A stretch of DNA of 64,000 bases from an uncultured Clostridia bacterium (GCA_937920235.1 CALGUK010000049.1:3151-67150), one strand, 5' to 3'. Positions 2,431 through 51,922 are shown, counted from the stretch's first letter. Notes: a model not told the origin generated them from the sequence alone. Program-made: numbers and translations.

Positions 2431-2535
2431 GAGTAATATATTCATATAGTAAACAAAGGAGAGTTGAGGCGGAATGTCATTAACTCTCGTTGTTTTATTA
2501 AAAAGCAAAATCAGTTTAAGGGATGTGACCGGGAA

Positions 2536-4758
2536 ATGAATAAAAAACCTACAAAAAAAATGGAAAGCCGATCAATGCAGGCATTTATCATTTTCTGCGC
2601 CGCATTGCTCTTGATAATAGGCAATCTGTTCTGGATCCAGATTGTCAAGGGTGAAGAATACAGACTCAAAGCAGAACGTAATCAGCTCAGTGATACGGTT
2701 ATCGCCGCAAACAGAGGAACGGTTTACGATTCAAATATGAAAGTGCTTGCACAGAGTGCTTCAGCATGGCTTGTTTATATTAATCCTTCAAAAATAAAGA
2801 CCGATGAGCAAAAACAGTTGCTTATTGACGGATTTGTAAAGCTTTTTGAGCTTGATGAAGAAACGGTTACCAAAAAGGTCAATCGCAGTGAAAGCGGTTA
2901 TGAAAAAATAATAGGACAAATCGATAACAGCCAGAAGGAAGAGCTTCAGAACTACATAAAGTCACACAGAGACCAGAAGCTTAATACAATTGTCGGAATA
3001 GACCCCGATACCAAACGCTATTATCCGCTCGGTTCTTTTGCCTCGACCGTAATAGGCTTTACGGGATCTGAGGATATAGGCAGATCGGGACTTGAATTGA
3101 AATATAACGATGCTCTGACGGGTGAGGCAGGCAGAAGAATTACGGCACAGAACGCACTCGCAGGCGATATGCCGAATGACTATGAGACAACTTATGATGC
3201 AGAGCAAGGATACAGCCTTGTGCTGACAATCGACGAGGTAATTCAGTATTATCTTGAACAACAGCTTGCGCAGGCTCTCAATGAAACTCAATCAAAATAT
3301 GCATACGGTATTGTTATGGATGTGAAAACAGGTGCTATTCTCGGTATGTCAACGATGCCCGATTACAACCTTAATGAGCCGTATAAAATCCATTCAGATT
3401 CTGTCATTGAAGAAATTGAGGCCATGGAGGATAAAACCGAAAAAGCACAGGCAGAGACCAATGCACTGTATTCACAGTGGAGGAACAGAACTATTTCCGA
3501 CTCCTATGAGCCCGGATCTGTTTTCAAGCTTTTTGTTGCGGCAGCTGCACTTGAAGAGGGTGCTATCACTCCGGAATCAACATATAATTGCACAAGCTCA
3601 ATTAAGGTTGCCAACTATACACAGCATTGCTTCAATCACAAGGCTCACGGAGTTCAGACAGTTGCAGAAGCATTGCCAAATTCCTGCAATACCTTCTTTA
3701 TTACCGTGGGACAGCGTATGGGCAAGGAAACCTTCTTCAAATACTTTGAAGCATTCGGATTTACCGAGACAACGGGAATTGATCTTCCGTCAGAAGCCGC
3801 ACCTGTTGCAGGCAAAACTTATTATAATATTGATAAAATGGGAATTGCGGAATTGTCCTCTGCCTCTTTCGGCCAGACATTCCAGGCAACACCCATTCAG
3901 ATGATAACAGCCGTAGCATCTCTCGGCAATGGCGGAAAACTTATGAAACCGTATGTTGTAGCCAAGGTTCTCGACGGTAAGGGCAATATAGTGTCAGAGA
4001 CGGAGCCGGTGGTTAAACGACAGGTAATCTCGAAGAAAACGGCAGAAATTATGACAGACCTTATGGAAGAAGTCGTAGTCTGGGGTACCGCAAAGAATGC
4101 TTATGTTGCAGGATATCATATAGCAGGAAAAACAGGTACGAGTGAAAAAATCGGTGCAAATGCGGCAGATCAGAGCATCGCATCCTTTGCAGGCTTTGCG
4201 CCGGCAGATGATCCGCAGATAGCCGTGTTTATAGCGGTTGACGAGCCTCAGTACTATGCAACGGGCGGTTCGGGTGCCGCACCTGTCGCAGGCAGAATAT
4301 TTGAAAATATTCTTGCTTATCTCAATGTTGATCCTCAGTACAGTGATGAAGAGCTTGCACAGGCAACTGTCACTGCACCGAATCTTATCGGTGAAAGTTT
4401 AGATAACGCAAGAGTGAAGGCAAGCGGATTTACCGTAAGGGTTGTCGGTGAGGGCGAAACAGTAGTATCACAAATGCCGTCGTCAAGTCAGTCAATGCCA
4501 AAGGGCGGTGTTATCGTTGTTTACACAGATGAAACCAGCGACAAGCAGACCGCAACAGTACCCGATCTTACTGGACTGACGCTGACTGAAGCCAACAGAG
4601 CGGCCGTCAATTCGGGATTTAATATAAAAATTGCAGGAACAACACAGGGCGCAGGGCAGGTACTCTCCTATAAACAGAGTATCGAAAAGGAAACTGTCGC
4701 CGAGGTCGGTTCGGTAATAACCGTATATTTCCGTTCAAGCGAAAATGTTACGGACTAA
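2536..4758 (+). CDS. class B penicillin-binding protein (FtsI/PBP2B/SpoVD family) with two PASTA domains
   Basis: Transpeptidase motifs SVFK, SCN and KTGT. Two C-terminal PASTA-like repeats (APNLIGESLDNA..., VPDLTGLTLTEA...). N-terminal TM anchor. ATG 2536 chosen; the ORF opens at 2464. Confidence 0.93.
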   Translation: MNKKPTKKMESRSMQAFIIFCAALLLIIGNLFWIQIVKGEEYRLKAERNQLSDTVIAANRGTVYDSNMKVLAQSASAWLVYINPSKIKTDEQKQLLIDGFVKLFELDEETVTKKVNRSESGYEKIIGQIDNSQKEELQNYIKSHRDQKLNTIVGIDPDTKRYYPLGSFASTVIGFTGSEDIGRSGLELKYNDALTGEAGRRITAQNALAGDMPNDYETTYDAEQGYSLVLTIDEVIQYYLEQQLAQALNETQSKYAYGIVMDVKTGAILGMSTMPDYNLNEPYKIHSDSVIEEIEAMEDKTEKAQAETNALYSQWRNRTISDSYEPGSVFKLFVAAAALEEGAITPESTYNCTSSIKVANYTQHCFNHKAHGVQTVAEALPNSCNTFFITVGQRMGKETFFKYFEAFGFTETTGIDLPSEAAPVAGKTYYNIDKMGIAELSSASFGQTFQATPIQMITAVASLGNGGKLMKPYVVAKVLDGKGNIVSETEPVVKRQVISKKTAEIMTDLMEEVVVWGTAKNAYVAGYHIAGKTGTSEKIGANAADQSIASFAGFAPADDPQIAVFIAVDEPQYYATGGSGAAPVAGRIFENILAYLNVDPQYSDEELAQATVTAPNLIGESLDNARVKASGFTVRVVGEGETVVSQMPSSSQSMPKGGVIVVYTDETSDKQTATVPDLTGLTLTEANRAAVNSGFNIKIAGTTQGAGQVLSYKQSIEKETVAEVGSVITVYFRSSENVTD

Positions 4759-4776
4759 ATAACAGAGGTAATCACA

Positions 4777-6204
4777 ATGAAACTTTCTTCTCTTCTCAGA
4801 GGTGTGGAAACACAGGATGTGTATGAGGAAAGGGAAGTTGAAAGAGTAACGGACAAGGACAGCGAAAATTTAAACAAGGCACTTTTTGTATGCGTTAACG
4901 GTAACAGATGTGACGGACACACACTTGCGCGTAAGGCGGTAGAAAACGGAGCGATTGCCGTTGTGACAGACAGAGACATCGGTCTTGAACAACAAATTGT
5001 TGTGAAAGACACAAGAGCTGCGTTTGCGCGTATTGCGGCAAACTTTTACGGCAATCCCGAGAAAAAAATAAAGGTTATAGGTATTACGGGAACAAACGGA
5101 AAAACCTCTACATGCCATATAATAAAGGGAGTGCTTGATTATCTCGGGCACAGCTGCGGACTGATCGGCACTGTGAAAAATGTGATGGGAACGGTTGAAT
5201 CTGAGTCGGTGCTGACCACTCCCGAACCGATGGAGCTGTATTCAATGCTATCCTCAATGGCGGAGTCCGGCTGTGAATATTGTGTAATGGAGGTTTCGTC
5301 GCAAGCGCTTGATCAAAAGCGAGTTGATGCGTTAAGGTTTTGCGCAGCCGCTGTTACAAATATTACTCCGGAACATCTTGATTACCATTTATCTATGGAA
5401 AATTACACTGATGCAAAGCTGAAAATTCAACATCTGTCAGATTATATATGTTATAATTCGGATGATGCGGTGCTTTCATCATCAAAGGACAAAATTGTCT
5501 GTAAAAATTATACATATTCAACCGTTTCGGACCGTGCCGATTTCACGGCGAAAAATATAGTATGCAACGAGAACGGTATAAGATACGAGTTTGTCGGTAC
5601 GGATTGCATAAGCAGAATTTCATCATCTCTGCCGGGAAGATTTTCGGTATATAATACTCTTTGTGCTGCATCGGTTCTGAAAATTCTCGGCTTTTCCGCG
5701 GATGAAATTTCAGACGGGATAAAGGAACAAGGCTCGGTTACGGGCAGAGCAGAAATTATTCCCGTACCGAAAAATATACTTGTAATGAGGGATTATGCCC
5801 ATACTCCCGACGGACTTGAGAATATTCTGAATGCCGCACGCGAGTTGACAAAAGGCAAACTCTTTGTTGTTTTCGGATGCGGAGGAGACCGGGATAAATC
5901 AAAGAGGGCAGAAATGGGCAGAATTGCCGGAGAGCTCTCCGATTATGCGGTTGTGACAAGCGATAATCCGAGGACGGAAAATCCTCTGCTTATAATAAAT
6001 GACATATTGTGCGGAATGGAAAAATCACGTTCTGCAATTGCCGTTATCGAAAATCGGCGACAGGCAATAGAATTTGCACTTAAAAAAGCAAGAAGAGGAG
6101 ATACAGTACTTCTTGCAGGCAAAGGCCACGAAACATATCAGATAATAGGGAATAAAAAAATTCCGTTTGACGAGAAGAAGATAACGGAAGAATTTTTTGG
6201 ATAG
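4777..6204 (+). CDS. murE: UDP-N-acetylmuramoyl-L-alanyl-D-glutamate--2,6-diaminopimelate ligase
   Basis: Mur ligase P-loop GITGTNGKTST and the DNPR motif typical of meso-DAP-adding MurE. Confidence 0.93.
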   Translation: MKLSSLLRGVETQDVYEEREVERVTDKDSENLNKALFVCVNGNRCDGHTLARKAVENGAIAVVTDRDIGLEQQIVVKDTRAAFARIAANFYGNPEKKIKVIGITGTNGKTSTCHIIKGVLDYLGHSCGLIGTVKNVMGTVESESVLTTPEPMELYSMLSSMAESGCEYCVMEVSSQALDQKRVDALRFCAAAVTNITPEHLDYHLSMENYTDAKLKIQHLSDYICYNSDDAVLSSSKDKIVCKNYTYSTVSDRADFTAKNIVCNENGIRYEFVGTDCISRISSSLPGRFSVYNTLCAASVLKILGFSADEISDGIKEQGSVTGRAEIIPVPKNILVMRDYAHTPDGLENILNAARELTKGKLFVVFGCGGDRDKSKRAEMGRIAGELSDYAVVTSDNPRTENPLLIINDILCGMEKSRSAIAVIENRRQAIEFALKKARRGDTVLLAGKGHETYQIIGNKKIPFDEKKITEEFFG

Positions 6205-6218
6205 ACCGGGAGATACAG

Positions 6219-7577
6219 ATGGATATTAAAGCATCGGAGATTGCAAAAGCGTTAGGAACAATTTGTGATTCGGAAAATATAATAAACCGTGTATCAATTG
6301 ACAGCAGAGATGTCGATGATAAAACGATATTTTTTGCTATCAAGGGAGAACGATTTGACGGACATGATTTTATACCGTCTGTTGTACAAAACGGTGTCGG
6401 TGTGATTGTCAGCCATAAAAAAACAGACTGTAATGTGCCCGTTATCTATGTGAAGGATACGAAAAAGGCACTTCTGGATTTTGCAAATTATTACCGAATG
6501 TCAATAGAAGGTCTTACGGTGGTGGGACTCACCGGAAGCGTCGGCAAAACCACAACAAAGGAAATGGTTGCCTGTGTCCTTGCACAAAACGGTGAAACGA
6601 TAAAAACAGAAGGTAATCTCAACAATGAAATCGGAGTGCCGAAAACACTTTTCCGACTTGAAAAATCAACAAAAAATGCCGTAGTGGAGATGGGTATGGA
6701 CGGTCCAGGGCAAATAACGGTTCTCTCGGAGTGTGCAAGACCAGATTGTGCGATTATAACTAATGTAGGTGTTTCGCATATTGAAAATCTCGGTTCAAGA
6801 GAGGGAATACTTCAGGCAAAGCTTGAAATTCTAAAGGGACTAAAAAAAGGGTCAACAATTTTCCTGAACGGCGATAACGATATGCTCAGTACGGTGAAAT
6901 CCGATGATTTCAGAATCGTATTTTTCGGAATTGAAAATAAAAATTGTCATATTCTGGCGAAGAATATAACAGAAATCGGCTTTTCTACAACTTTTACCGC
7001 TGTTTGCGGTGATGTAAGACAAAAAATTACAATTCCCACCGTCGGTATTCATAATGTTTACGATGCCCTTGCCGCCTTTGCTGTCGGTATGGAGTATAAA
7101 ATATCTCCGGAAAGAATTGCGACAGGACTTGCGGAATACACACCATCGGGTATGCGGCAGAATATAAAAGAAGCAGGCGCGATTACCGTAATTGAGGATT
7201 GCTATAACGCAAGCCCGGATTCACAAAAAGCAGGACTCAATTCTCTGTGTAAAATAGCTAAGGGCAGAAAAATTGCGGTTCTCGGTGATATGCTTGAATT
7301 GGGTAACTACAGCGAAACTGCTCACAGAAATGTGGGAGAATATGCGGCAGAATGTGATGTCGATGTGCTTTATACCTACGGCGAACAGTCACGGTATATG
7401 GCTGACAGTGCAAAAAAATCCGGTCTCTTGTCTGTAGAATCGTTCTGTGATAAAATTGAACTTATAAACACTCTTCTATGCGAGATAAAACCCGGTGATA
7501 CCGTTCTTTTTAAGGCGAGCCGCGGTATGAAGCTTGAAGAGGTTATTGAAAAGATATATGAAAAATGGGATGTATAA
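6219..7577 (+). CDS. murF: UDP-N-acetylmuramoyl-tripeptide--D-alanyl-D-alanine ligase
   Basis: Mur ligase P-loop GLTGSVGKTTTKEM, MurF-like length, and position after murE. Confidence 0.92.
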   Translation: MDIKASEIAKALGTICDSENIINRVSIDSRDVDDKTIFFAIKGERFDGHDFIPSVVQNGVGVIVSHKKTDCNVPVIYVKDTKKALLDFANYYRMSIEGLTVVGLTGSVGKTTTKEMVACVLAQNGETIKTEGNLNNEIGVPKTLFRLEKSTKNAVVEMGMDGPGQITVLSECARPDCAIITNVGVSHIENLGSREGILQAKLEILKGLKKGSTIFLNGDNDMLSTVKSDDFRIVFFGIENKNCHILAKNITEIGFSTTFTAVCGDVRQKITIPTVGIHNVYDALAAFAVGMEYKISPERIATGLAEYTPSGMRQNIKEAGAITVIEDCYNASPDSQKAGLNSLCKIAKGRKIAVLGDMLELGNYSETAHRNVGEYAAECDVDVLYTYGEQSRYMADSAKKSGLLSVESFCDKIELINTLLCEIKPGDTVLFKASRGMKLEEVIEKIYEKWDV

Positions 7578-7592
7578 TAAGGAGATGAAGTA

Positions 7593-8624
7593 ATGAATAT
7601 CTATGTGGCTCTCGGTGCAGTAGCAGTTTTAAGCTTTTTGATTTCATTTTTATCGGGATTTGTCCTTATTCCGTGGCTTCGCAAGTTGAAATTCGGGCAG
7701 ACTATTCTTGATATCGGCCCTGCCTGGCATAAGTCTAAGCAGGGAACTCCGATTATGGGCGGAATTATGTTTATTGTCAGCACCATCGTTTCAGTCGTTT
7801 GCGTGCTTGTTACAGATCACCTTATGGGCGGAAATCTTTTCGGCAGTGAGCATATTTTCCCCGAACAGCTCAAGGTTAAGCTTGTTGCAGGTATACTTCT
7901 CGCTGTTGGACTCGGACTTGTCGGATTTACGGACGATTATATCAAGGTGGTAAAAAAGAGAAATCTCGGACTTACTGAAATACAGAAAACCGCTTTACAG
8001 ATGATTATTATAATCGGATATCTTATAGCGCTGTATGCTAACGGACTTACCTATATGAAAATTCCTTTTGTAGGTGCAGTTGACCTTAAATGGTTTTTCT
8101 GGCTGTTCGGCATATGCGTGATTTACGGTGCCGTAAACGCTGTAAACTTTACTGACGGTGTTGACGGACTTTGTGCAGGTGTAACCTCCGTTACGGCAAT
8201 AGCATTCTGTATAGCGGCACTCATGACAAAATTTTTCGGTATAAGTATTCTTGCGGCAGCTCTCGCCGGCGGATGTATAGGTTATCTTATATGGAACTAC
8301 TATCCGTCAAAGGTTATGATGGGTGATACAGGCTCAATGTTCCTCGGCGGTATGGTCGTAGCTCTTGCTTATGCAATAGATTGTCCGATAATTCTTGTCC
8401 TTTTCGGAATAATATATGTTATTGAGGCTCTTTCAGATGTTATTCAGATAGGATATTTCAAGTTAACTCACGGAAAGCGTATATTTAAAATGGCTCCGAT
8501 TCATCATCACTTTGAGATGTGCGGGTGGAAAGAGCGTAAAATAGTTACAATATTTACTCTTGTAAATGCATTAGGCTGTGCAATAGGACTTGCACTTTAC
8601 TGGTATGGCGTAATCAACAGATAA
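7593..8624 (+). CDS. mraY: phospho-N-acetylmuramoyl-pentapeptide transferase
   Basis: Polytopic membrane protein with the MraY motifs NAVNFTDGVDGL and GDTGSMFLGG. Confidence 0.95.
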   Translation: MNIYVALGAVAVLSFLISFLSGFVLIPWLRKLKFGQTILDIGPAWHKSKQGTPIMGGIMFIVSTIVSVVCVLVTDHLMGGNLFGSEHIFPEQLKVKLVAGILLAVGLGLVGFTDDYIKVVKKRNLGLTEIQKTALQMIIIIGYLIALYANGLTYMKIPFVGAVDLKWFFWLFGICVIYGAVNAVNFTDGVDGLCAGVTSVTAIAFCIAALMTKFFGISILAAALAGGCIGYLIWNYYPSKVMMGDTGSMFLGGMVVALAYAIDCPIILVLFGIIYVIEALSDVIQIGYFKLTHGKRIFKMAPIHHHFEMCGWKERKIVTIFTLVNALGCAIGLALYWYGVINR

Positions 8625-16998: not shown

Positions 16999-18186
16999 GT
17001 GATTATATTGATTATCAGATTTTTAAGATTCTTTTTCGGGTATATAAATTTCAGAGCATACGGCGGATTTTCGGACAGATTTTTAAATCTGTGCACAAGA
17101 GATGCGATTCCTTTATGGAATATAAAAAATGTCAAGGGAAATATATCAGCATCAACTACTATTGAGGGTTATCTGTCAATTCGTAAGCCTGCACGGAAAT
17201 CAGGTATGAAGGTGATATGCCTTGAAAAGAAAGGTCTTATATTTTTTATGAAGAAAAATAAAGTCCGCGTCGGACTCCTTGCGGGTCTTATATTTTGCGC
17301 CGGTGTGACCTTTTTGCTTTCGCAGTTCGTGTGGAGCGTTTCTTTGGTTGGCAATATATCGCTTGAAGAGGATTATATTCTCGAAAGCTTTGCACGTCAC
17401 GGCATAAAGGTGGGTGTCCCGATTTCATCACTGGATGAAACAGATGCGGTGTCGTTGGTGCAGAGCGAAATTGACGAATTATCGTGGGCAGCAGTTAACA
17501 GAAAGGGTACAACGGTTGTGATTGAGGTCAGAGAGCGTACTGCAGAGCCCGAAATGTATGACAGCGAAACACCTACAAATCTTATTGCCTCAGAAGACGG
17601 TGTGATTGTCAGCATAGATGCTCTCTACGGAAACGAGGAAGTCAAACCCGGCTCGGCAGTAACAAAGGGTGATTTGCTTATAAGCGGGATAATAACTCTT
17701 GCGGACGGAACGGAAAATACAATTCATGCAGACGGCTACGTAAAAGCACTTGTAAAGAGAGAAAAAGCATTTACGGGTAATGAATACGAGATTTTTGCAC
17801 AAACTAAAGAAAAAACGAGAAAAAGCCTGTTTTTTTTCGGTGTTACAATCCCTTTGGGCAGAGCTGTGCCGCAAACCTTTTTTACAGAGCACAAATCCTT
17901 TGTCGAAAGCAGAAATACCCTTTTGCCTGTGGGATATGTAACAGAATACGGTGCGGAATATGCTGATCAGATTGAACAGCCGGATGCATGTGTGCAGGAG
18001 AAAATTGCACTTTGGCAGAACGCATGTTATGTCAGGGAGCTTCTCGGATTTAGTGAGATTAGAAACTCCTCGGTGAAAAGAAATGAGACCGGAGGAAAAA
18101 CAAAATTTGTATTTTCCGGTGAATGCATGCAGGAAATAGGTGTTTTACAGGAAATTTATGTAGAAAAAAGTGATGACAATACATAA
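16999..18186 (+). CDS. yqfD: sporulation protein YqfD
   Basis: 395 aa. N-terminus FFGYINFRAYGGFSDRFLNLC plus a mid TM helix matches the YqfD family. GTG start abuts the yqfC stop. Confidence 0.88.
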   Translation: MIILIIRFLRFFFGYINFRAYGGFSDRFLNLCTRDAIPLWNIKNVKGNISASTTIEGYLSIRKPARKSGMKVICLEKKGLIFFMKKNKVRVGLLAGLIFCAGVTFLLSQFVWSVSLVGNISLEEDYILESFARHGIKVGVPISSLDETDAVSLVQSEIDELSWAAVNRKGTTVVIEVRERTAEPEMYDSETPTNLIASEDGVIVSIDALYGNEEVKPGSAVTKGDLLISGIITLADGTENTIHADGYVKALVKREKAFTGNEYEIFAQTKEKTRKSLFFFGVTIPLGRAVPQTFFTEHKSFVESRNTLLPVGYVTEYGAEYADQIEQPDACVQEKIALWQNACYVRELLGFSEIRNSSVKRNETGGKTKFVFSGECMQEIGVLQEIYVEKSDDNT

Positions 18187-44680: not shown

Positions 44681-44749
44681 TTGCAAAAACGCAGGGAAAA
44701 TCTGCAATTTTGCTATTTACTTGCTATTGAAAACGGGTTATGATAAAAT
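44681..44749 (+). promoter_or_regulatory. activator-type promoter with phased TGCAA repeats upstream of the LytTR operon
   Basis: TGCAA cores at 44682 and 44703 (21-bp phase). CTGCAATTTTGC at 44702-44713 and TATTGAAAACG at 44725-44735. Extended -10 TGATAAAAT at 44741-44749. No good -35 element. Confidence 0.5.
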
Positions 44750-44793: not shown

Positions 44794-45492
44794 ATGAAAA
44801 TACTTATCTGTGATGACGAAGTCAGATATATAAATGACCTGCGCAGGTATATTGAGGAATATATGAAAAACCACGGTATCGCCTGTGAGATTGATACAAC
44901 TACCGTGCCCAATGAAATAACAGATAATAATGTCGTTTATGATTTAGTGTTTCTTGATATAAGAATGCCGAATTTTGACGGAATTGACCTCGCCTATGAG
45001 CTGAAAGAACGAAACAGCAAGGTTGTTATATTTTTTGTTACTGCGTTCAATGAATATCAGGATGCAGCAATGGATTTACAGGTTTTCCGATTCTTTGAGA
45101 AGCCCTTTGATGCAAAACGATTATTTTCCAGTCTTGACAAAGCTATGGAATATATTGACGGCTCATATGTTGAAGTGTTTGTATATAACAATAAGGAACA
45201 CAAGAGAATTCTTGTCGATGATATAGTTTATATTGAAAACAGAAGCAGAAAAACGCATATCTACACACAGAAAAGTGAAATGATTGTCCGTGATTCTATT
45301 GACGAGTGGACAGAAAAATTGCCTACAACCTTCTTTTTCCGTGTTCATAAATCCTTTCTCGTTAACCTTCATTATGTTACAAAGTACAGTTATGAGGAGC
45401 TTTATCTTAACGAAAATATAAGAATCCCTGTTGCCACAAGAAAGCAGGCGGATTTTCATAAGGCCTGGTTCAGATATCTGAAAAGGAGATAG
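44794..45492 (+). CDS. LytTR-family response regulator
   Basis: Receiver domain (LICDDE..., phospho-acceptor context LVFLDIRMP) plus a LytTR DNA-binding domain (FFRVHKSFLVNLHYV). Confidence 0.93.
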   Translation: MKILICDDEVRYINDLRRYIEEYMKNHGIACEIDTTTVPNEITDNNVVYDLVFLDIRMPNFDGIDLAYELKERNSKVVIFFVTAFNEYQDAAMDLQVFRFFEKPFDAKRLFSSLDKAMEYIDGSYVEVFVYNNKEHKRILVDDIVYIENRSRKTHIYTQKSEMIVRDSIDEWTEKLPTTFFFRVHKSFLVNLHYVTKYSYEELYLNENIRIPVATRKQADFHKAWFRYLKRR

Positions 45493-45495
45493 AGA

Positions 45496-46776
45496 ATGTT
45501 TTTAGCTTTTTCATTTGCTTATTTAACAGAGTTTATATCAGCACATATTTTGTTTTCTTCAGCTGCAGAAAAGAAATATAAATCAGGAAAATGCTTTTTA
45601 ATAGGAGCAATTTTATTCGGAATAAGCATAATTATATGTTTTGTTGTCAGAAAGTTTACCTGGATTAATTTGATTATATACCTTATAATTGATATTTTAT
45701 ATGCTTATCTATGCTTTGATATGGGGATAAAAAAATCCATATTATACGGAACAATAGTTACACTTATAGGTGTAATATGGGAGGTGTTTGTTGAAATAAC
45801 GCTGTTATCAGTAACAGGTGCTGATTCCGAAGAATTACTGACAAGTGTGCTCGCTGTATCGATATGTTCTTATATAAGTAAAATGCTTTTGTTTATATCA
45901 GTATTGATTTTGTCAAGATTTGTCGCAAAAAATGATGCAGTAAAACTACCGGTGTCTGTCACTATCTATCCGATTGTGCTGATTATTGTCCTTTTAGCCT
46001 TTTGGGAGGTGTGTGAGAAATGTCAAGTGAACTCAACAGGGCAGCTTGCACTGGCAATTACCGCTGCAGGTCTTATTATTCCGACGGTGCTTTTCTTTTT
46101 GATTTACCAAAGAAATATTGAAAGAGAAAACGAATTGTTCTGTTTGAAAAAAGAAATGGATAAAATTGAAACGGAAAAGAGTTATTACGATATTCTCGAT
46201 AAGCAAAATCAGAACTTAAGAATATATGTCCATGATACTAAAAAACATCTTGCCGCAATAAAAAGTCTGAATACGGATCCGCAAATTGAGAAATATCTCA
46301 ATAAAATAACTGAAAATCTTGCTACATACAGCAAAGTCAGTCGCAGCGGTAATCACTCGTTTGATGTTATCATCAACAGATATGTTACGGAATGTGCAAT
46401 CAAAAAGCTTAACTTTACGTTTGATACAAGACTTAAAAATCTGGAATATATTGAGAATTATGACCTTGTGACCATACTCGGAAATCTGCTTGATAATGCC
46501 CTGGAATCTGCGGAGCAGTCACAAAACCGAGAAATTACTCTTTCAACGGATTGCAGAAACGGTTATGATGTTTTGATTATTACAAACAGTTGTGATATTG
46601 AACCAAAATCTCTGAATAATAAGCTGATTACAACAAAAGCTGACAAAAAGCTCCACGGTATCGGACTTAAAAGTGTTGCAAAAACATTATTAAAGTATAA
46701 CGGAGATTTCGACTGGGATTATGATGAGCAAAATAAAATTTTTACGGCAACCGTTATGATGTCGGAGGTAAAATAA
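45496..46776 (+). CDS. multi-pass sensor histidine kinase (HPK10/AgrC-like, GHKL ATPase)
   Basis: About 6 TM helices, a coiled coil, an H-box YVHDTKKHL, an N-box LGNLLDNALES and a G-box HGIGLKSV. Confidence 0.9.
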   Translation: MFLAFSFAYLTEFISAHILFSSAAEKKYKSGKCFLIGAILFGISIIICFVVRKFTWINLIIYLIIDILYAYLCFDMGIKKSILYGTIVTLIGVIWEVFVEITLLSVTGADSEELLTSVLAVSICSYISKMLLFISVLILSRFVAKNDAVKLPVSVTIYPIVLIIVLLAFWEVCEKCQVNSTGQLALAITAAGLIIPTVLFFLIYQRNIERENELFCLKKEMDKIETEKSYYDILDKQNQNLRIYVHDTKKHLAAIKSLNTDPQIEKYLNKITENLATYSKVSRSGNHSFDVIINRYVTECAIKKLNFTFDTRLKNLEYIENYDLVTILGNLLDNALESAEQSQNREITLSTDCRNGYDVLIITNSCDIEPKSLNNKLITTKADKKLHGIGLKSVAKTLLKYNGDFDWDYDEQNKIFTATVMMSEVK

Positions 46777-46777
46777 T

Positions 46778-47626
46778 ATGATTTATATTGTCGGTTTAGC
46801 AACTTCATATTTTGTTGAAGCTCTGTCGTCCTATATATTATTTTCACACGTCGGTGAAAAAAGGTTTAAATCCGTATATTGCTTTCTGATTGGCACAGGT
46901 CTGCATTCCCTCGGCATGTTTATCAATTTGTTGGGCAAGAATAAGATATGGATAAATTTAATTGCCTTTTTGATCATTACCGTTATATTCGGTATGCTTG
47001 CATTTAAAATCAATTTTAATATGGTTTGCTTATACTCTGTATTTATTGTTGCTATTTGTACATTCTGCGAAATGTATATGGAAATGCTCATTACCTCTGT
47101 TACGGATATGCAAATGCAAAGCTATCTGACGAGCGATATGGTAATGGTTGCGTTAGTTATATTCGGTAAAGGGTTTTATTTAATCAGCATACTGCTGATG
47201 TCAAGACTCATAAAACGGGAAAACCGTGTTAAATTACCCTTGGTTATGTTTCTTTACCCCATTTCTGCTTTTTTATCCTTTGCAGTCATCTGGTATGTGT
47301 GCAGATATTGCAATGTCAATTCTTACGGCAAGCTTGTTCTGTCAACAGTTATGATGCTGCTTTTTGCTGTGGTTGTATTTCTGCTTTTTTCTTACCAGAA
47401 AGGTATTGAGAGAGAAAGCAAACTGCTTGAACTCAAAACACAAATTGAAAAATCAGAAACGGAAAAAACATATTACAGCATCATTGAAAAGCAAAATGAT
47501 AATCTTATTTCTTATGCAGACGATACGCAAAAGCATCTTAAAGCAATAAAAATGCTTAATTCCGATCCGCAGATTGATGAATACATCAATAAGATGCTTG
47601 CAAGTCTGGATGAATACGGTAAATAA
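46778..47626 (+). CDS. truncated paralog of the upstream kinase (sensor TM domain + dimerisation helix; no ATPase domain, His replaced by Asp)
   Basis: Collinear similarity to kinase residues 1-~280. The aligned H-box reads YADDTQKHL. The ORF ends right before the position of the N-box and is followed by a terminator. ATG lies 1 nt after the kinase stop. Confidence 0.75.
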   Translation: MIYIVGLATSYFVEALSSYILFSHVGEKRFKSVYCFLIGTGLHSLGMFINLLGKNKIWINLIAFLIITVIFGMLAFKINFNMVCLYSVFIVAICTFCEMYMEMLITSVTDMQMQSYLTSDMVMVALVIFGKGFYLISILLMSRLIKRENRVKLPLVMFLYPISAFLSFAVIWYVCRYCNVNSYGKLVLSTVMMLLFAVVVFLLFSYQKGIERESKLLELKTQIEKSETEKTYYSIIEKQNDNLISYADDTQKHLKAIKMLNSDPQIDEYINKMLASLDEYGK

Positions 47627-47631
47627 AAATC

Positions 47632-47667
47632 ACCCTCGTTTCCTTATGGCGACGAGGGTTTTGCTTT
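47632..47667. terminator. bidirectional terminator between the kinase paralog and the XRE gene
   Basis: Hairpin accctcgt / acgagggt, with T-rich runs on both strands. Confidence 0.75.
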
Positions 47668-47863
47668 ATTCAATTATAAATAAATCGCCGGGCAAACAGT
47701 CAAAAATTTTGCACAGCTTTTCTATGGTTTCAAGCTGTAAGCCGGTTAATGTGTTATCGCAGAGCTTGTTGACGGTTTTATATGTCGTCTGCATTTCCTT
47801 TACCAGCCAATATCTTGTTTTACCTTTTTTATCAAGTAAATTCTGAATATTCATTTTAATCAT
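47666..47863 (-). CDS. XRE/Cro-type helix-turn-helix transcriptional regulator
   Basis: 65 aa. The segment KTRYWLVKEMQTTYKTVNKLCDN...LETIEKLCKIFDCLPGDLF is typical of short HTH_26/XRE proteins. AGGTGA RBS. Confidence 0.85.
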   Translation of the reverse strand: MIKMNIQNLLDKKGKTRYWLVKEMQTTYKTVNKLCDNTLTGLQLETIEKLCKIFDCLPGDLFIIE

Positions 47864-48050: not shown

Positions 48051-48123
48051 TTCCTGCAATTTTACTTATTTTTTCTGCAGTTTTGCAGGGGATATTTTAT
48101 TGAAAACGATAATTTGATATAAT
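48051..48123 (+). promoter_or_regulatory. activator-type promoter with 21-bp phased CTGCA(A/G)TTTT direct repeats (candidate LytTR site)
   Basis: CTGCAATTTT at 48054-48063 and CTGCAGTTTT at 48075-48084. TATTGAAAACG at 48098-48108. Extended -10 TGATATAAT at 48115-48123. The layout matches 44681-44749. Confidence 0.5.
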
Positions 48124-48166: not shown

Positions 48167-51100
48167 ATGAAGAACAAAGTAAAAAGTCTGATAAGCATCT
48201 TACTTTCTTTGACTATTCTTATGGTTTCTGTTCCTGCTGTTTCACTTTTCTCCTTTGCGGAGGAAATCGAGGCAGGTGACGACCTGGAAGAATTTTCCGA
48301 GGATGTAACAAATCTTATCAGAGATGCCGGGTTAACAACTGATGAAAATGACTTGTATGTGTCCGCGGCTTCCGATACCGATGAAGCCGATACAAGTTAT
48401 GAGTATCAGACGGCAAGACTTATTGTTAAGTCAAAAAAGAAAATCGACAAGCTCAATGCCGTTGCCGTTGCAGACGGCTATGAGGATCTTCACATTTTGC
48501 AGTTTGCAACACCCGAGGATGCTCAGAAGGCTTGCGAATACTATCTTACATTGGATTATGTCGAATACGCTCAGCCCGACGGGATAGTTGAAGCTGCCGA
48601 TTATGAGGTAGTGAATGAAACACAGTCTATTGAAGATATCATTGCAGAGAAACCCGATCTTGAAAAGCCTGCAATTCAGGTAGGTATCAAAGCTCTTAAA
48701 GAATTTCTTGTGTCATCTGGCATTACGTTTACGAGAAAAATTGAGGTCGCCGTTGTTGATACGGGTGTGGAATCCACTCACAGTCTTCTGAAAGATCGTG
48801 TTGAACCTACAGGAAAGAATTTTTCTTCAAACGGAGCTGCAAATTCTTCTGAGGACAATAACGGTCACGGAACTCACGTTGCCGGTATTGTTGCGGTGAA
48901 CTCTCTTTCAAATGTAAAAATCAGACCGTATAAGGTTCTTGACGGTGCAGGAAGAGGAACGGATATTCAGATAGTCCTCGGCGTTGAGGCGGCAATATCC
49001 GACGGCGTTGAGGTTATAAATATGAGCCTCGGAAGAAGAGGAACAAACAGAGCCTTGCACGACTCCGTAAAAAAAGCAGTTGCAAAAAACATTGCCGTTG
49101 TTGTTTCGTCGGGTAATGATTTTGCAAATCTGGACAACATCAAATATTCACCTGCAAGCTTTCCGGAATGTATCACGGTTATCGCTCACGGTGCAAACTG
49201 CACGGGAAATACTTTTTCAAACTACGGTGCAGTATGCGATATAGCGGCACCCGGTGTGAATATTTACAGCTCTTATCTCAGAAATACATACAGAAATATG
49301 ACGGGTACATCAATGGCAGCACCTCTCGTAGCCGCCGCGGTAACTTACGTTATACTCAGCTATCCCGGTATTACTCCGGATGAAATCAGCGAAACCTTAA
49401 AAATGCATGCTATTCCCGAGGCTAATGCCTCATATTCAACCGCAATGTGTCTGTATATGGAGTTCATTACTCGCAGTGTGGATAAATTGTCTGCTCCCAT
49501 ATTCAGCATAGAGAGCAAAGAGTTTGACATTCCGTTCATGCTGACTCTTTCATCGTCCGATGAAAATGTAACGATATACTATACAAGGTCTGAATTCAGT
49601 GAAGGGTATTACGAGAAATATACAGAGCCTATTCCCATCAGAAACAGTACAACTGTCAAGGCTTATGCATATCGAAAGGGTGCAGTGATGAGTGAATTTG
49701 TTTCACATACATATTCCAAGCTGTTCCCCAACGAAGACTCCAAATACGCCATAGATGAAAACGGAACAATTATCGAATATGTAGGACAGGATACCGAACT
49801 TTTTGTTCCCGAGGTAATTCAGGGAATACAGGTAAAGGCTATCGGTGAAGAAGCATTCCGTCAGAATAAAACAGTTGAGTTTATCGTATTACCCGAATCT
49901 GTTAAGATTATCGGTGAAAAGGCCTTTGCCGAGTCCGAAAAGCTCAGACAGGTTCGTGCAACGGGTGTGGAGACGATTGACACATCGGCATTTATGCTTT
50001 GTGAATCACTTGAAAGCATTGAAGGAAATAACATTAAAAACATAGGCTCTTATGCTTTTTACGGCTGTCCAGTACTCAAATATATTGATTTCTCCAAAGC
50101 GGAAAAAATCGAAAGCTGTGCTTTTGAAAGTGCGTTGAGCATTACAAGCGTTGTTTCAGATACATTGAGTGATGTCAGCGGTACGGCATTCAGAGAGTCG
50201 GGAATAAGAATCGTGGATGTTCCGAATATGAAGAAAATTGACGTGTCAACATTTTACGGATGTGAGCTGCTTGAAAAGGTAAATGCTCCTCTTGTTACAG
50301 CAATAAACAACGACGCGTTCAACGGATGCTCGGCTCTTATTGAAATCAACGCGGAAAATCTCGAAAGCGTTGGTCGCTACAGCTTCCTGAATTGCAGTTC
50401 ACTTGAAGAAATCAATTTCCCGAAGCTTAAAGATTTCGGCGGTTTAGGACTTGAAACAAGCGATTGGGGATGCTTCAAAAACTGTGAAAGTCTTAAAAAG
50501 GTCAATTTACCGTCAGCAACCGTTCTCACGGGCTCGACATTTGACGGCTGTTCATCTCTCGAAGAAATTTCCTTGCCTAAGGCTACGGTAATACCGATAA
50601 GTCTTTTCAGAAACTGTACCGCCCTCAAAAAAGCGGATCTGCCGTCGGCTACCGAAATTTATTCACGTGCATTCGACGGTTGCACCAGTTTAAAGGAAAT
50701 CGAATTGCCGTCTGTTAAAACTGTCAGAACAAGTGCATTTTATGGCAATAATATTGAAAGACTTATTCTTCCCGTTGTTGAAACTGTTGCCGATTTGCCA
50801 TCTGGGGCTATGGTTGCAATCGGCTCCAAGGCTCGCACTATAGACAATCCGAATGCTTTCAGCAGCGGCTCGGATATAACAATTTACGGCACTGTTAATA
50901 CAAAGGCTTACGAGTGGGCAGAAACATATAAAATTCCCTTTAAAGAGATAAATCAGAATAATGCGATTCATATGAATCTCCCCCATGAGTTTGATCAGGA
51001 CAGAGAAACAGCACTTGAAGTCGGTGTTATGGGATTTAACCGTACTTATCAGTGGTACGGAAACAGTCGTGCAGACAACACGACGGGTACTGAGATTGAG

Positions 51101-51922
51101 GGCGCTGTTGATAAAACCTTTAATCCCGTAAAATATGACGAGTACCCGTACTATTATTGTGTTGTGACAAGCAAGGATAATTCATATCCTGCCGTTGAAA
51201 TACGAACCGGTGTAGCTAAGAATATACATACACATATAAAGGTGGAAATTCCACGTGTTGAACCGACTTGTGTAACGACCGGTCTCACTGCCGGAACAGA
51301 GTGTTCGCAATGCGGCAGAATTATCACACCGCAGGAAGAAATACAGACAATTCCCCATGAGTACAACGGTGTTGTAACAGCTCCGACCTGTACGGAAGAG
51401 GGTTATACCACATATACATGTAATTGCGGCAGAAACTATATCGACGATTACGTTTCCGCAAAGGGACATACGGTAAGAGAATACGGGAAAGTTCTGGAAG
51501 CCCCGAATTGTACGGAGGAGGGCAGCAAGGACAGTATTGATTATTGTGTTGCCTGTAACTGTGTCCTTGAACGAAAGGTTATAACAATGCCGGCTCTCGG
51601 ACATACTCCCGGTAAAGCAGTTGAAGAGAACCTTGTGACACCCACCTGTGAGGAAACGGGCTCAAAGGATATCGTCATCTGTTGTTCACACTGCAAGGAG
51701 GAAATCAGTCGTGAAACAGTAACTCTGGAAATGCTTGGCCACAGCGATGATGACGGTGACGGCTATTGCGACGGATGCGATAAGCTCCTCGATGTAACGG
51801 TTGAATGTGACCATAGCTGTCACAAGGGCGGTATTTCAGGATTTTTCTGGAAAATCACGCTTTTCTTCAGCAAGCTTTTCGGCACTAACAGAGTTTGCGA
51901 ATGCGGAGTGGCGCATTATTGA
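48167..51922 (+). CDS. secreted S8 subtilisin-like protease fused to BspA-type leucine-rich repeats and a Cys/His-rich C-terminal module
   Basis: Signal peptide and an I9-like propeptide. Catalytic residues D (VAVVDTGV), H (HGTHVAG) and S (GTSMAAP). One chitobiase/Fn3-associated-like domain (VTIYYTRSE...TVKAYAYRKG) and about 18 LRR_5-type repeats. Four CxxC-type mini-repeats and the terminal CHKGGISGFFWKITLFFSKLFG motif. Confidence 0.9.
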   Translation: MKNKVKSLISILLSLTILMVSVPAVSLFSFAEEIEAGDDLEEFSEDVTNLIRDAGLTTDENDLYVSAASDTDEADTSYEYQTARLIVKSKKKIDKLNAVAVADGYEDLHILQFATPEDAQKACEYYLTLDYVEYAQPDGIVEAADYEVVNETQSIEDIIAEKPDLEKPAIQVGIKALKEFLVSSGITFTRKIEVAVVDTGVESTHSLLKDRVEPTGKNFSSNGAANSSEDNNGHGTHVAGIVAVNSLSNVKIRPYKVLDGAGRGTDIQIVLGVEAAISDGVEVINMSLGRRGTNRALHDSVKKAVAKNIAVVVSSGNDFANLDNIKYSPASFPECITVIAHGANCTGNTFSNYGAVCDIAAPGVNIYSSYLRNTYRNMTGTSMAAPLVAAAVTYVILSYPGITPDEISETLKMHAIPEANASYSTAMCLYMEFITRSVDKLSAPIFSIESKEFDIPFMLTLSSSDENVTIYYTRSEFSEGYYEKYTEPIPIRNSTTVKAYAYRKGAVMSEFVSHTYSKLFPNEDSKYAIDENGTIIEYVGQDTELFVPEVIQGIQVKAIGEEAFRQNKTVEFIVLPESVKIIGEKAFAESEKLRQVRATGVETIDTSAFMLCESLESIEGNNIKNIGSYAFYGCPVLKYIDFSKAEKIESCAFESALSITSVVSDTLSDVSGTAFRESGIRIVDVPNMKKIDVSTFYGCELLEKVNAPLVTAINNDAFNGCSALIEINAENLESVGRYSFLNCSSLEEINFPKLKDFGGLGLETSDWGCFKNCESLKKVNLPSATVLTGSTFDGCSSLEEISLPKATVIPISLFRNCTALKKADLPSATEIYSRAFDGCTSLKEIELPSVKTVRTSAFYGNNIERLILPVVETVADLPSGAMVAIGSKARTIDNPNAFSSGSDITIYGTVNTKAYEWAETYKIPFKEINQNNAIHMNLPHEFDQDRETALEVGVMGFNRTYQWYGNSRADNTTGTEIEGAVDKTFNPVKYDEYPYYYCVVTSKDNSYPAVEIRTGVAKNIHTHIKVEIPRVEPTCVTTGLTAGTECSQCGRIITPQEEIQTIPHEYNGVVTAPTCTEEGYTTYTCNCGRNYIDDYVSAKGHTVREYGKVLEAPNCTEEGSKDSIDYCVACNCVLERKVITMPALGHTPGKAVEENLVTPTCEETGSKDIVICCSHCKEEISRETVTLEMLGHSDDDGDGYCDGCDKLLDVTVECDHSCHKGGISGFFWKITLFFSKLFGTNRVCECGVAHY
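51602..51922 (+). repeat. 321-nt 3'-terminal module, paralogous copy 1
   Basis: Gap-free alignment with 57291-57611. 78 of 106 residues are identical by my hand count, and 31 of the last 36. Confidence 0.85.

Follow-up and report, generated by a model that had tools for sequence, protein, structure and literature searches.

The usual view of a sensor kinase is that of a homodimer with a single input. Kinase–kinase heteromers and bacterial pseudokinases (RetS–GacS, DivL, FasBC) have been documented recently, in a few model pathogens. Among the experimentally studied systems, FasBCA of group A Streptococcus is the closest to the locus described here. FasB and FasC heterodimerize and form no homodimers in a two-hybrid assay, and a FasC fragment comprising the membrane and DHp regions, FasC(1–286), is functional (PMC12675982). 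In the model proposed for this system, FasB acts in trans on His246 of FasC (PMC12675982).

Three further cases are relevant. RetS inhibits GacS via a DHp interface (PMC8498467), and a laboratory-evolved ChrS without its catalytic domain heterodimerizes with HrrS (PMC9491836). SkiA/pXO2-61, a sensor-domain protein of B. anthracis, is proposed to be a ligand sink for the kinase BA2291 (PMC5862856). Conceptual precedents for a pseudokinase or an accessory kinase partner already exist; what is added here is an AgrC-type family with the double loss of the phospho-acceptor histidine and the catalytic domain. In the literature searched, no natural and conserved paralog of the AgrC type that has lost both was found to be described, an absence that is no proof. 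The paralog in question is encoded in a stretch of 64,000 nucleotides from an uncultured Clostridia bacterium (the window), in which all positions are counted unless a related locus, designated by an L number, is named.

Organization of the operon

A LytTR response regulator, an AgrC-like kinase, and the paralog form one plus-strand operon (Table 1). The regulator harbors Response_reg and LytTR domains (Pfam, E 3e-17 and 5e-20, respectively) and is 71–82% identical across related loci. The region of the operon promoter is conserved among 11 aligned upstream regions. The Shine–Dalgarno sequence of the paralog lies inside the end of the kinase gene, and the spacing from kinase to paralog is 1–2 nt or a 4-nt overlap in seven of nine loci; this arrangement amounts to a predicted translational coupling of the paralog to the kinase.

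Table 1. Coordinates of the operon and its surroundings in the window.
Feature	Position	Strand	Details
Direct-repeat box TGCAAnnnTGCA-N9-TGCAAnnnTGCA	44682..44714	+	Two copies spaced 21 nt apart; immediately 5′ of the operon promoter
Sigma-70-type operon promoter	44721..44749	+	TTGCTA, 17 nt, TAAAAT; TG precedes the -10 hexamer; consensus scan
Response regulator	44794..45492	+	232 aa; receiver and LytTR DNA-binding domain; Asp55 in LVFLD
AgrC-like sensor histidine kinase	45496..46776	+	426 aa; polytopic membrane sensor, DHp, HATPase_c_5; stop TAA 46774-46776
Shine-Dalgarno GGAGG of the paralog	46764..46768	+	9 nt ahead of ATG, within the end of the kinase gene; read from sequence
Paralog ORF	46778..47626	+	282 aa; ATG; begins 1 nt past the kinase stop codon
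Paralog sensor module, residues 1-205	46778..47392	+	Seven membrane helices (AlphaFold2)
Paralog linker helix and DHp-like hairpin, residues 206-282 and stop	47393..47626	+	Asp248 replaces the phospho-acceptor His
Intrinsic terminator hairpin	47632..47659	.	Common to the operon and the convergent HTH gene
HTH_26 gene	47666..47863	-	Convergent; between the operon and the S8 peptidase gene
Second copy of the box	48055..48087	+	Ahead of the S8 peptidase/LRR gene; candidate regulon promoter
S8 peptidase/LRR gene	48167..51922		1251 aa, predicted secreted

The hairpin downstream of the paralog has a folding energy (dG) of −19.6 kcal/mol (z = −4.5), and none of 200 shuffled sequences was equally stable. 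It is flanked by an A-run on its 5′ side and a U-run on its 3′ side and is followed by the convergent HTH_26 gene, as befits the bidirectional terminator that had been predicted at this site. A simple terminator scan missed the hairpin because its loop or bulge lies beyond the scan's rule.

All loci have the direct-repeat box ahead of the regulator gene; in 10 loci, the further flanks of which are unrelated, it occurs there with 0–2 mismatches. Window-wide, three sites were counted against 0.09 expected. Direct repeats with a 21-nt spacing are the classic layout of LytTR sites, and from this spacing the box ahead of the operon is a candidate binding site of the LytTR regulator. The box also lies ahead of the first gene downstream of the module in L006 (8590–8622), L010 (6039–6071), L016 (8325–8357), and L017 (8722–8754). 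The genes so preceded encode an S8 peptidase with LRR_5 repeats, an LRR_5 protein, or a “Glug” protein. This placement suggests autoregulation as well as control of large secreted neighbor proteins. A match at 17985–18017 has 2–3 mismatches, lies inside a 395-aa coding region, and is probably due to chance.

The S8 peptidase of the window has LRR-type repeats and a Cys-rich C-terminal repeat region, and its gene is syntenic in L017 (73% identity). In two other loci, ORFs of 49 aa lie directly 3′ of the large secreted-type proteins adjoining the module (L010, 8209–8358; L016, 5241–5390).

The kinase and its truncated paralog

The catalytic domain of the kinase, HATPase_c_5 (PF14501), spans residues 319–422 (Pfam, E 3.5e-22). 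The kinase has 622 homologs at E<1e-20, nearly all of 424–436 aa, and a PDB sequence search with it returned a single weak, irrelevant match. His246 (CAT, 46231–46233), with His at this position in 46 of 46 aligned kinases, is likely the phospho-acceptor. His253 (“KHL”) was considered as an alternative and is unlikely to serve in this role, as it faces a different side of the helix (position g) and is replaced by Gln in the L019 kinase. The paralog retains this His, which not all kinases of the wider family possess.

The paralog is collinear with the kinase from residue ~8 to residue ~280, with 110 of 274 residues identical (40%; BLASTP E 3e-67) and two gaps. Asp248 (GAC, 47519–47521) aligns with His246 of the kinase, and the C-terminal sequence …DEYGK aligns with …ATYSK of the kinase, just ahead of the catalytic domain. 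Of the features of the AgrC-like (HPK10/HATPase_c_5) class, the polytopic sensor, which comprises 5–8 helices in this class, is present; the phospho-acceptor His of the HD motif and the C-terminal GHKL ATPase domain PF14501 are absent. The paralog has no match in Pfam or NCBIfam.

An AlphaFold2 model of the paralog, based on a 58-sequence alignment (pLDDT 87.9, pTM 0.72), places helices at residues 2–25, 32–52, 57–75, 80–109, 120–144, 156–177, and 182 onward. The membrane helices were taken from this model, since simple hydropathy prediction was too noisy. In the model, membrane helix 7 runs on as a single long helix into the DHp hairpin, where helix 1 extends to residue 260 and is followed by a turn (residues 261–263, N-S-D) and helix 2 (residues 264–281), with nothing beyond. 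A Foldseek search of the PDB with the model gave nothing below E 0.48 and only generic seven-helix membrane proteins. Across the PDB sequence search with the kinase and the Foldseek search with the paralog model, no solved structure resembling the whole paralog was found.

Apart from one point, all that the original prediction said of this protein holds: a 282-aa ORF begins 1 nt after the kinase stop codon, the histidine of the H-box has become an aspartate, and the frame closes where the ATPase domain would start. The same is true of the collinearity of its sensor with that of the kinase. The number of membrane helices, given as six, is not sustained by the model, which has seven.

Conservation and selection

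A search of 5.8 billion proteins yielded 14 clusters of homologs, three of them fragments, among which is the window's own protein. The full-length homologs are all 282–287 aa in length and 39–51% identical, end at the same point, and have the His replaced by D, N, or E. When 1.84 billion representatives were searched with a profile, this added one more representative of ~287 aa and otherwise retrieved full-length kinases of ~426–448 aa. In the source databases the family is named only “hypothetical protein”.

Wherever the DNA context is readable, the short gene lies directly 3′ of a 426–431-aa kinase and accompanies a LytTR regulator; a regulator of this type (Response_reg and LytTR) is encoded in the same operon at all loci. 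The kinase-then-paralog order is found in the window and in L001/L005, L002, L003, L004, L007, L010/L011, L012, and L017, which span at least five different chromosomal neighborhoods, in a sample biased by the retrieval of most loci with the paralog as the query. L017 is syntenic with the window, with identities of 82% for the regulator, 67% for the kinase, 89% for the HTH protein, and 73% for the S8 peptidase, and its copy of the paralog has 285 aa. All organisms with these loci are uncultured MAGs, and the hosts are uncultured gut Clostridia, including Candidatus Fimenecus. In L007, the truncated paralog is immediately followed by another, more distantly related pair comprising a LytTR regulator and a HATPase_c_5 kinase (3614–5627).

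Selection was estimated by the Nei–Gojobori method on unsaturated pairs only. The dN/dS of the paralog is 0.10–0.19 overall, 0.10–0.28 in the sensor, and 0.03–0.18 in the DHp part, which is its best-conserved region; the kinase has values of 0.10–0.14. Many members of the paralog family share a short C-terminal tail, E-R/K-x-N-K. No relic of a catalytic domain was detected 3′ of the stop codon in any of the three frames at 11 loci. In L001/L005, an extension beyond the stop codon in tblastn was only apparent and does not represent a relic.

Origin, sensor exchange, and distribution

Bootstrap trees were unrooted and built from capped distances with 300 replicates. In the DHp region, the bipartition between truncated copies and kinases has 100% support, which indicates that the truncated form without the His arose once. 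The same split has 0% support in the sensor region. Here, the paralogs of L012 and L017 group with one full kinase of L006 (L006_HK2, 94%), and the other eight paralogs group with the second (L006_HK1, 100%), so that the kinase and truncated backbones have exchanged sensor modules.

A mosaic of synonymous divergence supports this exchange. Between L002 (774–3029) and L003 (4597–6855), dS is 0.68–0.84 in the kinase sensor and DHp and 0.10–0.16 in the catalytic domain and the adjacent paralog, which indicates a recent recombinational replacement of the N-terminal half of the kinase. The window itself is an example of such swapping: the sensor of its kinase is 52% identical to the L017 paralog (over the shared 279 aa), while the paralogs of the window and L017 are only 39% identical. 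Paralog and partner kinase of the same genome have sensors that are 30–56% identical.

Three close relatives, L008, L009, and L016, encode the regulator and the kinase without the paralog, and the DHp of their kinases is unchanged. A comparison of L009 (5377–5484) with the syntenic L005 (5946–6884) reveals a clean indel of ~940 nt that corresponds to the whole paralog gene, with flanks that are 84–88% identical in DNA sequence. No relic of the paralog was found in the corresponding gaps of L008, L009, and L016. On the basis of its absence from these relatives, the paralog is an accessory gene. L006 has a different arrangement, in which two full-length tandem kinases (6001–7278 and 7281–8558) follow the regulator, both with an AHD H-box; the sensor of the first is of a type that elsewhere occurs on truncated paralogs.

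The absence from close relatives and the tandem kinases of L006 speak for a decaying pseudogene, that is, a recently truncated second kinase without function. This possibility is very improbable. Full-length clusters down to 39% identity have an uninterrupted frame and fall into one length class, the dN/dS is that of purifying selection, the tail is conserved, no catalytic relic is present, and the truncated copies form one clade with full bootstrap support, to which the L006 kinases, both with a kinase-type DHp, do not belong. The pseudogene reading is rejected on these grounds, and the paralog is most likely a functional gene maintained by selection. The original prediction had favored a retained function over fresh decay and had named dN/dS and orthologous loci as the places to look; there, purifying selection is evident, the truncated copy persists at the same length, including in the syntenic L017, and no locus has a recent nonsense or deletion lesion.

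Conserved and altered positions of the DHp

The DHp regions of 12 paralogs and 46 kinases were compared. The hydrophobic a/d positions of DHp helix 1 (233, 240, 243, 247, 250, 254, 257, and 261) are the same in both groups. In contrast, the b/e/f stripe, a surface band centered on the lost His, holds fixed differences at positions 234, 241, 245, 248, 251, 255, and 262. Position 248 is D, N, or E in 12 of 12 paralogs and His in all 46 kinases, and position 251 is Gln in every paralog and Lys in every kinase (12/12 and 46/46). The remaining differences of the stripe (paralog versus kinase) are S versus D at 234, E versus Q at 241, S/T versus I at 245, E versus S/A/T at 255, and S versus T/D at 262. 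Elsewhere, fixed differences occur at 236 (I versus L), 242 (N versus D), and 279 (E versus T). The paralogs have for the most part retained Asp249 and Asn252, which adjoin the position of the lost His.

With the a/d core unchanged and the differences concentrated on the His stripe, the core of the bundle has been preserved, whereas the surface for catalysis and docking was remodeled and the changes were then fixed. This pattern fits a paralog that can still be accommodated in the four-helix bundle of the kinase although its catalytic face is lost. Conversely, the changes fixed on the surface could keep paralog and kinase apart and favor homodimers with another partner. Since the sensors of paralog and partner are so dissimilar, pairing through the membrane domain is not assured either.

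The DHp is the docking site of response regulators, and a DHp alone can be a phosphatase, as is the case for domain A of EnvZ. A paralog homodimer might in this manner bind the LytTR regulator through its DHp and dephosphorylate or sequester it at the membrane, leaving the kinase untouched. The strong constraint on the DHp (dN/dS 0.03–0.18) and the retention of Asp249 and Asn252 would suit such a phosphatase or tether. However, by analogy with EnvZ, the surface residues beneath the His determine partner specificity in other kinases, and positions 255, 262, and 279 differ consistently from those of the kinase, whereas conservation would be expected of a protein that recognizes this regulator too. 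Phosphatase or tether activity is considered unlikely.

The membrane sensor may alternatively act as a decoy that soaks up the ligand of the kinase, as proposed for SkiA/pXO2-61 acting on BA2291, which sets a precedent for sensor-domain-only proteins in B. anthracis (PMC5862856). Purifying selection on the sensor module (dN/dS 0.10–0.28) is compatible with this role. A sensor only 30–56% identical to that of the partner kinase is unlikely to share its ligand, though, and a pure decoy has no need for a DHp, yet the DHp is the best-conserved region and has ten family-specific fixed residues. A decoy function is quite improbable.

Proposed mechanism

Of the roles offered in the original prediction, heterodimerization with the kinase or anti-kinase action fits the data best; the decoy and pseudogene explanations fit worst. 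It is proposed, from gene and protein comparisons and from analogy with described systems, that the paralog is a pseudo-histidine kinase that enters dimers of the kinase and there acts as a dominant-negative (anti-kinase) subunit with a sensor of its own, which damps kinase output. This proposal is given an even chance of being correct.

The paralog would be made together with a complete AgrC-like kinase and a LytTR regulator through the predicted co-transcription and translational coupling. It would then join the kinase in the membrane by means of the common core of DHp and membrane helices. Such a mixed dimer would have one ATPase domain and one His, both on the kinase chain, such that the ATPase domain of the kinase would find no His on its partner and the His of the kinase no ATPase domain. 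Autophosphorylation in trans is reported for AgrC. If the present kinase follows the trans mode described for its class, the mixed dimer would be silent. If autophosphorylation occurs in cis instead, the mixed dimer would keep half the activity, and the paralog would be a co-sensor rather than an inhibitor. As an inhibitory subunit, the paralog would add a second, different input. Because the direct-repeat box lies at the operon promoter, auto-induction of the operon via this conserved element would raise the level of the inhibitor as well, resulting in negative feedback.

The cis case leads to a positive co-sensor similar to the heteromeric Fas kinase, in which the sensor of the paralog would switch on the full kinase within the mixed dimer. 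FasBC is an obligate heterodimer of the same kinase class, and the membrane and DHp half of FasC suffices for function (PMC12675982); translational coupling and the conserved bundle core are also consistent with a co-sensor. However, in Fas the partner with the dispensable catalytic domain holds the essential His246, and this His is gone in every paralog of the present family. Furthermore, the complete kinase occurs alone in L008, L009, and L016 with its DHp unaltered, which argues against any dependence on the paralog. An activating role is regarded as improbable, and the damping subunit remains the preferred reading.

Distant truncated copies

Two loci from a distant branch of the same kinase superfamily, L018 and L019, encode a regulator, a truncated paralog, and a full kinase in this order. 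The L018 copy (182–1063) has 293 aa, is 54% identical to the neighboring kinase, and has Ser in place of the His. The L019 copy (2509–3402) has 297 aa, is 58% identical to its neighboring kinase, and keeps the His (SHDYKNQL). Both end at the DHp boundary, and each is known from a single contig. Each copy is closer to its own neighboring kinase than to the other truncated copy, which suggests separate duplications or gene conversion between neighbors. L018 and L019 may represent independent origins of the same architecture.

A broader, rather doubtful extension of the proposal is that paralogs consisting of sensor and DHp without a catalytic domain form a class of their own, recurrent and as yet without a name, in which they are ligand-gated dominant-negative subunits of AgrC-like kinases of the quorum or peptide type, with at least three origins (the present family, L018, and L019) and with sensor cassettes recombined with those of the partner kinase. 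If this were true, each strain would have a gate that activates on signal A and vetoes on signal B, for example its own signal and that of a competitor.

Implications

The locus would offer a natural, minimal, selection-maintained kinase partner that is cut down to sensor and dimerization hairpin and has a rewritten catalytic face. The relatives without the paralog and the one with two full kinases make it a ready comparative and experimental system, suited to asking how mixed dimers control output, whether autophosphorylation in this class proceeds in cis or in trans, and how the exchange of sensor modules takes place. In addition, it draws attention to a protein family without any Pfam or NCBIfam annotation, which standard pipelines render as “hypothetical protein”.

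Comparison with known systems

FasB/FasC/FasA of S. pyogenes shares with the present locus two tandem polytopic AgrC-like paralogs and one LytTR/ComE-type regulator (PMC12675982). In both, one paralog is a pseudokinase, and a unit of ~286 aa comprising membrane and DHp regions works in Fas (PMC12675982). The Fas paralogs are known to heterodimerize (PMC12675982), whereas pairing is here a prediction. FasC differs from the present paralog in that its catalytic domain, although dispensable, is still encoded and in that it carries the essential His246 (PMC12675982). The short protein described here natively lacks both, and its partner is a complete kinase. While both Fas proteins are required, comparative evidence from L008, L009, and L016 shows loci that do without the short protein. 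The gene order also differs: the kinases come first in fasBCA, and the regulator comes first in the window.

ChrS of C. glutamicum is likewise a membrane kinase that, minus its catalytic domain, is still functional and pairs with a paralogous kinase (PMC9491836). In contrast to the present paralog, it arose by a frameshift during experimental evolution, keeps its His, raises output through a lost phosphatase function, and does not belong to a natural conserved family (PMC9491836).

DivL of Caulobacter is a histidine kinase homolog with a replaced phospho-acceptor His that regulates another kinase (PMC4211667). Unlike the paralog, it keeps the catalytic domain, has Tyr for His along with PAS domains, is encoded away from its partner rather than in tandem, and is involved in reverse signaling (PMC4211667).

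RetS–GacS of P. aeruginosa resembles the proposed mechanism in that a kinase-like protein that does not itself signal to the regulator inhibits a bona fide kinase through a DHp–DHp contact (PMC8498467). However, RetS is a large hybrid protein with catalytic and receiver domains that is encoded elsewhere rather than in tandem and belongs to another kinase family (PMC8498467).

SkiA/pXO2-61 and pXO1-118 of B. anthracis are naturally truncated kinase paralogs without catalysis that negatively modulate the pathway of a related kinase (PMC5862856). They differ from the paralog in comprising the sensor domain only, with no DHp, and in being plasmid-encoded in trans, and signal titration is their proposed mode of action (PMC5862856). 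The paralog, in contrast, has kept the full DHp hairpin as its most constrained part.
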